From an uncultured bacterium (lineage in GTDB: Bacteria; Nitrospirota; Thermodesulfovibrionia; Thermodesulfovibrionales; Thermodesulfovibrionaceae): a stretch of 64,000 bases of DNA. Location of the stretch: positions 1,603 through 65,602 of the forward strand of contig CALDSV010000010.1 in assembly GCA_937924475.1 (NCBI GenBank). The letters run 5' to 3'. Both the position numbers and the translations under genes were made by a program. Under the pieces are notes generated by a model. The model had not been told where the DNA came from. It did no database searches and worked only from the letters and a program-made list of their open reading frames with translations. This document shows, piece by piece, positions 61,988-64,000 of this stretch. The first letter of the stretch is position 1; the number at the start of each line of letters is the position of its first letter.

Positions 61988-63235
61988 CTACTGCAAATAT
62001 AACAAATCATCCTTAAAGTACTGAGTGAGAAATAAAATTAAATAGTCCTTAAGATGTCTGGTTATTAGAAAATTTTGCTTTACATGGGCATGACCATTTT
62101 TCCCCAGCCATTTAGCATATTCTGGATTTGTAAGAAGCGTTCTTATAGCATAGGCAGCACCCTCTATGGAATGACAAAGTAAGCCTGTGATTTTATGTTT
62201 AATCTGTAGCAAAATGCCTCCTACAGCAGAGGCAACAACAGGTTTACCTTTCCATAAAGCCTCTGTTACAGTCAATCCAAAGCCTTCTTTTATTGATTTT
62301 TGGACAACTACTGTAGCTGCTCTTTGTAATGCATTTATCTCAATGTCACTGTCTGGAGGTAGAAGAAGTATACGTATATCAGGATTTTTTCCAGCTACTT
62401 CTTTGACTTCACCTAATACTTTATCTGATTCGGGATCATCAGTGGCTGTTCCACCAGCAAGAATTAATTGACAAGGTATGGTTTTTCTTACCATTTCAAA
62501 GGCTTTTATAACACCAACAGGATCTTTAAGATAATCGAATCTTGAAACTTGAAGAATGATAGGCTTTTTTTTGTCTATGCCATATTTATATAACACAGAA
62601 TTGATTTGATCTTCTGAAAGCTCTTTATTTTTGTTGCTTAATGGATCTATAGAAGGATAGATTAGAGCCATTCTTATTCTAAGAGGTTTTGCAAAGTTTG
62701 GGGCTGAGAAAACAGCAGCATCATAGTTTTCAACATAGGTTTTTATAAAATTCCATATTTTTTCATCAGGATTTGATACATCTATATGACAACGCCAAAG
62801 CCATTTTTCTCCTACTTCCTTTCTTTTCTGTACAAGAGCCACTGGCTGTGGATCATGAATAAAGATTATATCTTCTGATAAATTAAGTTCTTCTGAATTT
62901 TTCCTGTTTATCTCAAGAAAATAATCAAAATCACTTTCTTTGAATTCCTCTTTTTTACCGTGTAATGCATTATGGAATTTTTTAGTAATATTGAAAAATT
63001 CATTGTCTCCCTTGATTACACTCCATTTTGTCTTTACTCCAAGTTCATTAAGAAATGGAACCATTCTTGAAAGTATTTCAGCAACGCCACCACCGATGTA
63101 GGTAGAATTTATATTATGAATAGTCTTCCCTGAAAGTTTATCTGCAAGAATTTTTAGCTCTTCAAGAACGCATCTACCTATTAATGGTTCATAGTCTCTA
63201 AGCTTAGGTCTTGTAGTTTTTAGCTCTTTATTCAA
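61988..63235 (-). CDS. treT: GT4 trehalose synthase (glycosyl-transferring), TreT family
   Basis: INSTYIGGGVAEIL, HNALHG, IHDPQP, WRCHID, QVSRFD..KDP, KEGFGLTVTEALWK. Confidence 0.85.
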   Translation of the reverse strand: MNKELKTTRPKLRDYEPLIGRCVLEELKILADKLSGKTIHNINSTYIGGGVAEILSRMVPFLNELGVKTKWSVIKGDNEFFNITKKFHNALHGKKEEFKESDFDYFLEINRKNSEELNLSEDIIFIHDPQPVALVQKRKEVGEKWLWRCHIDVSNPDEKIWNFIKTYVENYDAAVFSAPNFAKPLRIRMALIYPSIDPLSNKNKELSEDQINSVLYKYGIDKKKPIILQVSRFDYLKDPVGVIKAFEMVRKTIPCQLILAGGTATDDPESDKVLGEVKEVAGKNPDIRILLLPPDSDIEINALQRAATVVVQKSIKEGFGLTVTEALWKGKPVVASAVGGILLQIKHKITGLLCHSIEGAAYAIRTLLTNPEYAKWLGKNGHAHVKQNFLITRHLKDYLILFLTQYFKDDLLYLQ

Positions 63236-64000
63236 CTTACTTCCTCCGTTTCAAGATGCTCTTCAATTATGGAAACTATTTTTTCTCTTATGTTTTCAAT
63301 TGTATCCATATAAGGGTCAATGTTGATGATTTTCTCTGCAAGATCTTCCTCACCAAGGCTTTCTTTTAACCATAATGAAAAGTCATTTGTCACTTTTCCT
63401 AACCTCAGGCGTGCTTCATATATATGGAAAAATAAAGAATTAGGGCTAATAAATTTTAAAATCTGGACAAATTCTCTCAAATCATGAGCAATATAAGGTG
63501 TGGGCATAACAACACTTACAGATTTAATAAAATGGAACTCCTCTCCTTCATCGCATTCTTTTTCTGAGGGATTACTGTTGATGTATTCTTCCAAAATATC
63601 AGAAATTCTTTTTCTTATCTCTTCCATATTAGAAAACTCATATATGTCAATTGTAGAGAGCTTTTCAGCAACAGCCTCGTATCCTAAAATATTTCCAATC
63701 CATAGGGCAAATTCATTAGATGGCTGCGGCACTAAATATTGATATTCTTCAATAAAATCATGGGTATGATAGAAAATTACAGAATTGGGCACTTTTTTTA
63801 TATAATCCAATAATTCTTTTAAGTTTTTTGCTTTCAAACCTGTTAGTTCCTTTAAATTAAGCCTTGTATAAAATCTAAAAGGTTCTTTTGCTTTTTTAGG
63901 TGGTTTTCTGAGTATCTCAAGTTTAGCCTTGATAAATTTATGGTTAGGAATCAATATCAACTTTTCATCAAAGCTCCTTATCTCAACATGTCTCCATGTT
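63232..64000 (-). CDS. 5'-truncated MscS-beta-domain/DUF5752 (OrfY-like) fusion protein; frame runs off the window end
   Basis: No stop in frame from 63960 to 63999 (TWRHVEIRSFDEKLILIPNHKF); two DUF5752-like repeats (EPFRFYT...NEFALW / EEFHFIK...NDFSLW); stop TGA overlaps the treT TTG start. Confidence 0.8.
   Translation of the reverse strand, partial: TWRHVEIRSFDEKLILIPNHKFIKAKLEILRKPPKKAKEPFRFYTRLNLKELTGLKAKNLKELLDYIKKVPNSVIFYHTHDFIEEYQYLVPQPSNEFALWIGNILGYEAVAEKLSTIDIYEFSNMEEIRKRISDILEEYINSNPSEKECDEGEEFHFIKSVSVVMPTPYIAHDLREFVQILKFISPNSLFFHIYEARLRLGKVTNDFSLWLKESLGEEDLAEKIINIDPYMDTIENIREKIVSIIEEHLETEEVS

Follow-up and report, generated by a model that had tools for sequence, protein, structure and literature searches.

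A conserved fusion of an MscS-type channel with the OrfY (DUF5752) domain, encoded directly upstream of treT in predicted bacterial trehalose operons

The DNA analysed here (the window) is a stretch of 64,000 nucleotides from an uncultured bacterium of the Thermodesulfovibrionaceae (assembly GCA_937924475.1, contig CALDSV010000010.1, positions 1,603 to 65,602). At its right-hand edge, on the minus strand, lies a gene, hereafter msc::orfY, which according to profile matches encodes a genuine fusion of an MscS-type mechanosensitive channel, with transmembrane (TM) helices upstream, to an OrfY (DUF5752) domain, and which directly precedes treT, the gene for a predicted trehalose synthase. As judged by comparison across genomes, the fusion is real and conserved, and its product is most likely a specialised sensor or channel in which the OrfY ring serves as a partner for TreT.

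Only the 3′ part of the gene is inside the window, where a minus-strand frame beginning TWRHVEIRSFDEKLILIPNHKFIKAKLEILRK has no stop from the edge at 63999 down to the stop codon at 63232–63234. TTG 63960 is merely the first start codon of this frame to fall within the window, and the sequence-only reading, which preceded this analysis, had already observed that the frame is open to the edge. In the extension of the contig (L002; window coordinate = L002 coordinate + 61397), the reading continues for 208 further codons to an ATG (L002 3226, window-equivalent 64623), giving a complete open reading frame (ORF) of 463 amino acids (aa) without an in-frame stop. The full gene spans L002 1835–3226, equivalent to 63232–64623 on the minus strand, with its ATG outside the window; the portion at 63232..64000, delimited by frame, ORF and Pfam matches, encodes residues 209–463. 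From the edge inwards, this portion comprises the C-terminal strands of the MscS beta-domain (63922..63999, residues 209–234, assigned by Pfam and HMMER and including the conserved IPN motif with P226 and N227), a 12-residue linker, LEILRKPPKKAK (63886..63921, residues 235–246), which is uncovered by Pfam domains and whose K/P-rich motif is kept across the family alignment, and the DUF5752/OrfY domain.

The sequence past the edge is needed for recognition of the channel half, because the window fragment alone scores 17.1 bits against PF00924 (MS_channel_2nd, the MscS beta-domain), under the cut-off of 20.2, whereas the full protein scores 51.4 bits over residues 174–234. The beta-domain, first matched by eye, also aligns in HMMER to an MscS-containing chimera, where the family sequence runs from ditwrn to lvPnsklvks, and P226 is invariant within the alignment of the fusion family. 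Hydropathy reveals five hydrophobic segments, and, by the positive-inside rule, the K/R-rich loops at 30–50 and 110–128 indicate an N-out/C-in orientation. An AlphaFold2 model, for which 30 homologues were used, has a mean pLDDT of 83.6 and contains helices at residues 9–41, 49–75, 81–114, 122–147 and 153–185, the last kinked (153–169/171–185), then the beta-domain at 194–237 and, in the C-terminal half, a beta-hairpin plus five helices, twice. The 463-aa product is thus modelled as an inner-membrane protein with five TM helices ending in a kinked helix of the pore type. The sequence-only reading had anticipated MscS-like TM helices upstream in the same frame, and these are predicted there, together with an uninterrupted frame and an MscS profile match above threshold.

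Among PDB sequences, the family profile over residues 35–243 matches YnaI best (6e-17) and MscS next (7e-14). The resemblance to YnaI (PDB 6URT, 9H95) extends to the five-TM topology, with two extra N-terminal TM helices and the N-terminus outside, and the kinked pore helix and the beta-domain above the Pfam cut-off are shared with both YnaI and MscS (2OAU). In the HMMER alignment to the MscS-containing chain, MscS L105, L109, N117 and G121 coincide with family-conserved L, L, N and G, the window protein itself having V and L at the 105/109 gate positions, and the fusion family retains a PTTP motif at the entrance to the pore. Unlike in MscS, however, the equivalent of G113 is D or E, bulkier residues replace the TM3a Gly/Ala packing face of the E. 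coli protein in the alignments, and PF21088 (TM2/3) finds no Pfam match in the 463-aa fusion. A further departure from both YnaI and MscS concerns the cytoplasmic cage, which in those channels is completed by a beta-barrel and the C-terminal alpha/beta domain (PF21082), both missing from the fusion. No Pfam match to PF21082 occurs in the fusion, whereas canonical msc neighbours score 47–57 bits, and DUF5752 sits where that domain would be, in agreement with the replacement proposed from the window fragment. By these comparisons, the N-terminal half is a YnaI-like member of the MscS family in which one defining feature, the alpha/beta cage domain, is missing.

The C-terminal half matches PF19027 (DUF5752) over residues 247–454 with 219 bits against a cut-off of 23, covering profile positions 2–208 of 208. 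What had been read as a tandem DUF5752 is in fact one domain, and the tandem character resides in two internal repeats of about 100 aa, which are 31% identical (E = 3e-14). Repeat 1 (63574..63885, about residues 247–350), delimited by Pfam, the model and repeat comparison, consists of a beta-hairpin and five helices, and repeat 2 (63262..63543, about residues 361–454), delimited by repeat comparison and the models, adopts the same fold; both lie on the minus strand. With the family profile, residues 244–455 match PDB 4CSO, the OrfY protein of Thermoproteus tenax (E = 4.6e-33), and 4CSO is also the sole PDB match of the DUF5752 half in Foldseek (E = 3e-13, TM 0.55, 30% identity), with the whole model as well as with a domain-only model (pLDDT 81.5), nothing else falling under E = 1. 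Neither a DNA-binding fold (helix–turn–helix, winged-helix or other) nor a ligand-binding fold is among these Foldseek matches, and no Pfam DNA-binding domain is present in the 463-aa protein. The C-terminal 208 residues of the fusion are a full-length DUF5752 match and have a fold in common with the archaeal protein; in contrast, OrfY of T. tenax is a free soluble protein of about 216 aa, whereas the domain here is joined to a membrane channel.

The DUF5752 half is the slowest-evolving part of the fusion: its mean pairwise identity is 65%, whereas the pore helix and beta-domain together reach 49% and TM1–4 only 40%. Residues conserved in fused and free members alike are H286, N303, F305, W308, E320 and D326 in repeat 1, and H400, R407, D414, F415 and W418 in repeat 2. 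In contrast, only the fused family has invariant T287, H288, E292 and E293, which are not conserved in stand-alone OrfY proteins.

The fusion gene is the third of four in a predicted operon on the minus strand, in the order otsA, otsB, msc::orfY, treT. Both otsA (L002 3991–6228, 745 aa, GT20 at 412 bits behind an N-terminal extension of 277 aa) and otsB (L002 3219–3998, 259 aa, TIGR00685 at 166 bits) are separate genes, and treT (61988..63235, L002 591–1838) encodes a 415-aa TreT-type GT4 protein. From otsA to treT, successive genes share 8, 8 and 4 nt, and ribosome-binding sites (GAGG or GGAGG) are located within the preceding genes. The last junction is the TTGA overlap (63232..63235) noted from the start, in which the fusion stop TGA (63234–63232) shares bases with the treT start TTG (63235–63233), and a GGAGG Shine–Dalgarno sequence, evident on reading the sequence, lies inside the end of msc::orfY, 7 nt before the TTG (63243..63247). 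Such an arrangement indicates that msc::orfY and treT are translationally coupled, and we infer co-transcription of the four trehalose genes from the overlapping same-strand layout alone; a scan for promoters and terminators is uninformative, as it returned sites no more numerous than in shuffled sequence. The orfY and treT genes of T. tenax are reportedly paired as well, a pairing said to have been described by Kouril et al. in 2008.

The window TreT matches PF21269 (TreT_GT1, 194.3 bits) and PF00534 (93 bits), and aligns end to end with NF041139, the equivalog model of characterised Thermococcales TreT, from the third residue of the treT product and position 5 of the model on, with a score of 373.7 bits that is under the cut-off of 775. 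It is 87% identical to a protein of Thermodesulfovibrio aggregans named trehalose synthase. Its membership in the TreT family is clear, and the formation of trehalose from NDP-glucose and glucose is a predicted activity, as is its direction.

The OtsA extension deserves mention in its own right. Encoded at L002 5398–6228 (minus strand, window-equivalent 66795–67625, outside the window), its 277 residues run through one TM helix, a loop of about 150 aa and another TM helix to a helical linker; no Pfam domain is found in it, and it weakly resembles the input region of sensor kinase WalK (NCBIfam, E = 1.3e-7). It is a sensor-like module joined directly to trehalose-6-phosphate synthase. Homologous extensions are present in 19 of the 61 OtsA genes beside fusions, only in loci labelled Nitrospirota or ‘Deltaproteobacteria’ and in none from Chloroflexota.

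The fusion is not restricted to this organism. PF00924 and PF19027 occur together in more than 368 proteins in the databases, under the names ‘mechanosensitive ion channel’ and ‘DUF5752 family protein’; cultured Thermodesulfovibrio species carry the fusion at 63–71% identity, the orthologues of T. yellowstonii and T. aggregans being 65–69% identical. Species-representative genomes hold at least 583 loci with a relative of DUF5752, and the best 80 of them are all full-length fusions, which come from Nitrospirota, Chloroflexota (mostly Dehalococcoidia) and metagenome-assembled genomes labelled Deltaproteobacteria. At least 78 species genomes contain the full-length fusion, with a length of 457–469 aa and a shared linker, so the architecture proposed from a single locus extends over several phyla. 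The expected association with treT is likewise borne out: in all 72 of the 78 fusion ORFs that have at least 1.3 kb of downstream sequence and could be scored, treT follows next on the same strand, mostly with a gap of −20 to +12 nt, and in 39 of 41 fusion loci with room for them, otsA and otsB are both at most 8 kb away.

In a sample of 201 genomes from the phylum, full-length DUF5752 is found in 51, every one of which also encodes TreT (58 of 201 overall), and the fused form accounts for only 6 of the 51. In the genus of the window, a DUF5752 cluster is present in 5 of 21 genomes, all fused, with stop-to-stop frames of 463–469 aa; this patchiness fits gain or loss of the cluster as a unit. 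In each of 31 loci where DUF5752 is a free protein, treT adjoins it or is no more than about 2 kb away. A complete MscS (345–351 aa; PF21088, PF00924 and PF21082) is encoded directly upstream of the free DUF5752 in 13 of these, showing that the unfused order msc, orfY, treT exists in sister families, and the remaining 18 have no adjacent msc. A seemingly larger fusion, a 1224-aa frame with DUF5752 in genome G091, proved to be a high-GC open-frame artefact that covers real msc, DUF5752 and treT genes.

Phylogenies indicate that the fusion arose once and then spread across phyla, given that fused forms constitute a single clade, requiring one change, on a tree of 112 DUF5752 domains (SH-aLRT 99), and that the TreTs beside fusions likewise form one clade (SH-aLRT 100). 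TreTs without a DUF5752 neighbour fall into a separate deep clade (SH-aLRT 98), and one genome, G205, has one TreT of each kind. The unfused order msc-orfY-treT is likely the ancestral state. Recent read-through of a canonical msc can be ruled out as the source, because the second of the two MscS-type genes in the window's genome, a canonical one of 343 aa on contig 16, is only 24% identical to the channel half of the fusion, compared with 59% to the cluster-linked msc of relatives. No MscL was detected in this genome, and four fusion loci retain a canonical msc beside the fusion. The presence of a separate canonical MscS implies that the fusion is a specialised paralogue rather than the general emergency valve.

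That the fusion might be an artefact, two separate genes having been joined by an assembly or frameshift error, is brought to mind by the separate msc and DUF5752 genes of relatives with the same gene order. It is nevertheless excluded for practical purposes, since at least 78 independent genomes, including complete genomes of cultured Thermodesulfovibrio, share the 457–469-aa architecture and the linker, and the channel half of the fusion, which has no alpha/beta domain, belongs to a lineage of its own and is no canonical msc read through.

Links between channels and trehalose synthesis have a precedent in T. tenax, whose msc-gt-tpsp operon has led to a proposed model in which trehalose is made under stress and jettisoned via the MSC on relief, the non-catalytic GT activating TPSP through complex formation (Zaparty et al. 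2013, PMC3634074). In both cases, an MscS-type gene is grouped with genes for trehalose synthesis, here on the same strand with overlapping junctions. In T. tenax, however, the MSC is a free protein of 197 aa, and the enzyme, a TPSP fusion, has a GT4 glycosyltransferase as its partner (PMC3634074), whereas here the channel is fused to OrfY, TreT follows downstream, and OtsA and OtsB are encoded separately. The msc-gt-tpsp organisation was called unique to Thermoproteus and Pyrobaculum (PMC3634074). Unfused msc-orfY-treT(-tpsp) clusters of other Nitrospirota agree with the present operon in gene order and families, and differ in having a complete msc of 345–351 aa with three Pfam domains, a separate DUF5752 of 220–240 aa, and OtsA and OtsB fused as a TPSP of about 745 aa. 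The sequence-only reading knew of no description of such a system. In the literature searched, this holds for the fusion itself: no paper on DUF5752, on OrfY of T. tenax or on the fused msc::orfY architecture was found, the one match that combines OrfY with TreT looks unrelated from its title, and the S. acidocaldarius trehalose paper mentions neither channels nor operons. It does not hold for the surroundings, given that the PF00924 plus PF19027 architecture is already annotated in sequence databases, a structure of OrfY (4CSO) has been solved, and T. tenax already has a published model that links a channel to trehalose within one operon (PMC3634074).

With regard to function, we lean, with some reserve, towards the view that the fusion would act as the dedicated membrane sensor and valve of the trehalose system. 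The protein would assemble into a heptamer like other MscS-family members, and the OrfY ring under the pore would be a TreT-specific partner domain, holding TreT at the channel or regulating it allosterically. TreT-dependent trehalose synthesis would match the hyperosmotic state, in which membrane tension is low, and solute release would match hypo-osmotic shock, in which tension is high, the two being coordinated post-translationally; in genomes where the genes are unfused, a free OrfY would fill this role in trans. A partnership of OrfY with TreT is favoured because DUF5752 never occurs without TreT and yet often occurs without an adjacent msc, because it tracks one TreT lineage, because msc::orfY and treT appear to be translationally coupled, and because a non-catalytic partner that activates a trehalose synthase in a complex is known from T. 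tenax (PMC3634074). A mechano-enzymatic switch, in which membrane tension or cytoplasmic crowding, sensed by the channel core and transmitted via TM3b and the beta-domain to DUF5752, would toggle bound TreT while the same protein vents trehalose on downshock, is more doubtful.

Several observations weigh against a TreT-partnering sensor and valve. Synteny and matching trees can also reflect plain operon co-inheritance, the fused-only residues T287, H288, E292 and E293 suggest that the fused domain may have shifted in function, and conductance of the channel half is not assured, given the bulky TM3a and the lack of a PF21088 match. Moreover, natural DUF5752–TreT fusions are absent among the top 120 matches to a concatenated query, all of which are TreT alone (about 415 aa, 65% coverage), and the channel as the sole recurrent fusion partner fits a channel-regulating domain equally well. 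The last two points feed the main rival, a solute-sensing channel, in which DUF5752 would be a two-fold pseudo-symmetric sensor of a small molecule (trehalose, glucose or NDP-glucose) that sets the gating threshold of the MscS-like pore without contacting TreT, for example by easing release at high trehalose, and in which free DUF5752 would have the adjacent MscS as its target. Ligand-binding C-terminal domains are known from other members of the MscS family, the two repeats bear matching conserved polar and aromatic residues (H286, N303 and W308; H400, D414 and W418), and a complete msc immediately precedes a good share of the free DUF5752 genes (13 of 31). We nonetheless regard this alternative as unlikely: a general trehalose sensor should occur in OtsAB-only genomes too, whereas DUF5752 is found with TreT in 51 of 51 genomes and 18 of the 31 free loci are without an adjacent msc, and no ligand-binding fold is recognised by Foldseek in the PDB.

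Two further alternatives would deprive the channel half or the OrfY domain of the role favoured here. The channel half could be a non-conducting, heptameric membrane anchor that localises OrfY and thereby TreT, emergency release being left to canonical MscS. Such a scaffold would be in keeping with the undetected PF21088, the bulky residues on the TM3a Gly/Ala face, the fast evolution of TM1–4 and the canonical MscS kept in the genome and, at some loci, beside the fusion. It is distinctly improbable, however, given that the gate-equivalent Leu, the N117/G121 equivalents, the PTTP motif and the beta-domain are kept across phyla, which suggests selection on the pore core and not only on membrane insertion. 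Far less plausible still is a membrane-tethered transcription factor, in which OrfY would bind DNA and the fusion would control treT or ots transcription according to membrane state. The idea derives from the molecule name given by the depositors of 4CSO, ‘ORFY PROTEIN, TRANSCRIPTION FACTOR’, a label that is unsupported by the fold search, which returned 4CSO alone, and by Pfam; in addition, seven copies fixed under a membrane pore present an awkward geometry for operator binding, and strict pairing with one enzyme lineage plus translational coupling point instead to a protein partner.

DUF5752 also appears in other settings. In genome G155 of the same phylum, a 576-aa protein (L094 1005–2735, plus strand) combines a HAD/sucrose-phosphatase-like part, a HerA/DUF87-type P-loop and one C-terminal DUF5752-like repeat (PF19027, 29.7 bits), with neighbours that by eye resemble hydrogenase-maturation genes, and frames of about 580–600 aa with weak single-repeat matches are found in five other genomes; the OrfY repeat hence occurs as a single module in another sugar-phosphatase context as well. 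Genome G192 (same phylum, family f23) has a distinct trehalose cluster (L101 2489–11746) with genes for a maltokinase-like protein, a GH15 trehalase-like protein, free DUF5752, a GH13 alpha-amylase/TreS-like protein, TreT, a 427-aa protein and a 235-aa PF05552 protein. As PF05552 denotes a TM helix of mechanosensitive channels, this cluster is another, independent link of DUF5752/TreT with a mechanosensitive-type membrane protein. A conserved protein of about 402 aa (N-terminus MSDFYQTG..ATLHR.G), with no Pfam match, is encoded near msc-orfY-treT in 7 of the 31 free-DUF5752 loci (L093 5107–6315, minus strand, and also L083, L084, L089, L090, L091 and L114), directly upstream of msc in L083, L084 and L093. 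In G091, its neighbours are a PF05552 protein and a gene of the GT2/mannosylglycerate-synthase-like kind, pointing to a second compatible-solute pathway in this island.

On either side of the operon described here lie genes of other kinds. Two small genes follow treT after a gap of 111 nt (61296–61876, minus strand) and are probably outside the trehalose operon: one encodes a membrane protein of 113 aa with a weak match to DUF3147 (18.9 bits, under the cut-off), and the other a 70-aa protein with an MTCGHC metal-binding motif that looks CopZ/HMA-like by eye. Outside the window, divergent from the operon, two adjacent, very hydrophobic ORFs of 112 and 268 aa lie on the same strand (L002 6289–6627 and 6684–7490, plus strand); by eye, they resemble a single cation/proton antiporter broken into two parts, which may reflect a frameshift, a pseudogene or a sequencing error.

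OrfY/DUF5752 has had a crystal structure since 2014, to which a single stable channel fusion and a strict pairing with one TreT lineage are now added, and these two features narrow its role to the interface of membrane osmosensing and trehalose synthesis. For research on MscS, the fusion offers a natural swap of the cytoplasmic cage domain for a module linked to an enzyme, and the ‘make and jettison trehalose’ model of T. tenax would be extended to many bacteria, including cultured Thermodesulfovibrio species. If the mechano-enzymatic switch were true, OrfY would gain a function and TreT would be the first metabolic enzyme of bacteria for which allosteric control by a mechanosensitive channel is demonstrated; with a sensor-extended OtsA in the same operon, both routes to trehalose would then be wired to the membrane post-translationally.

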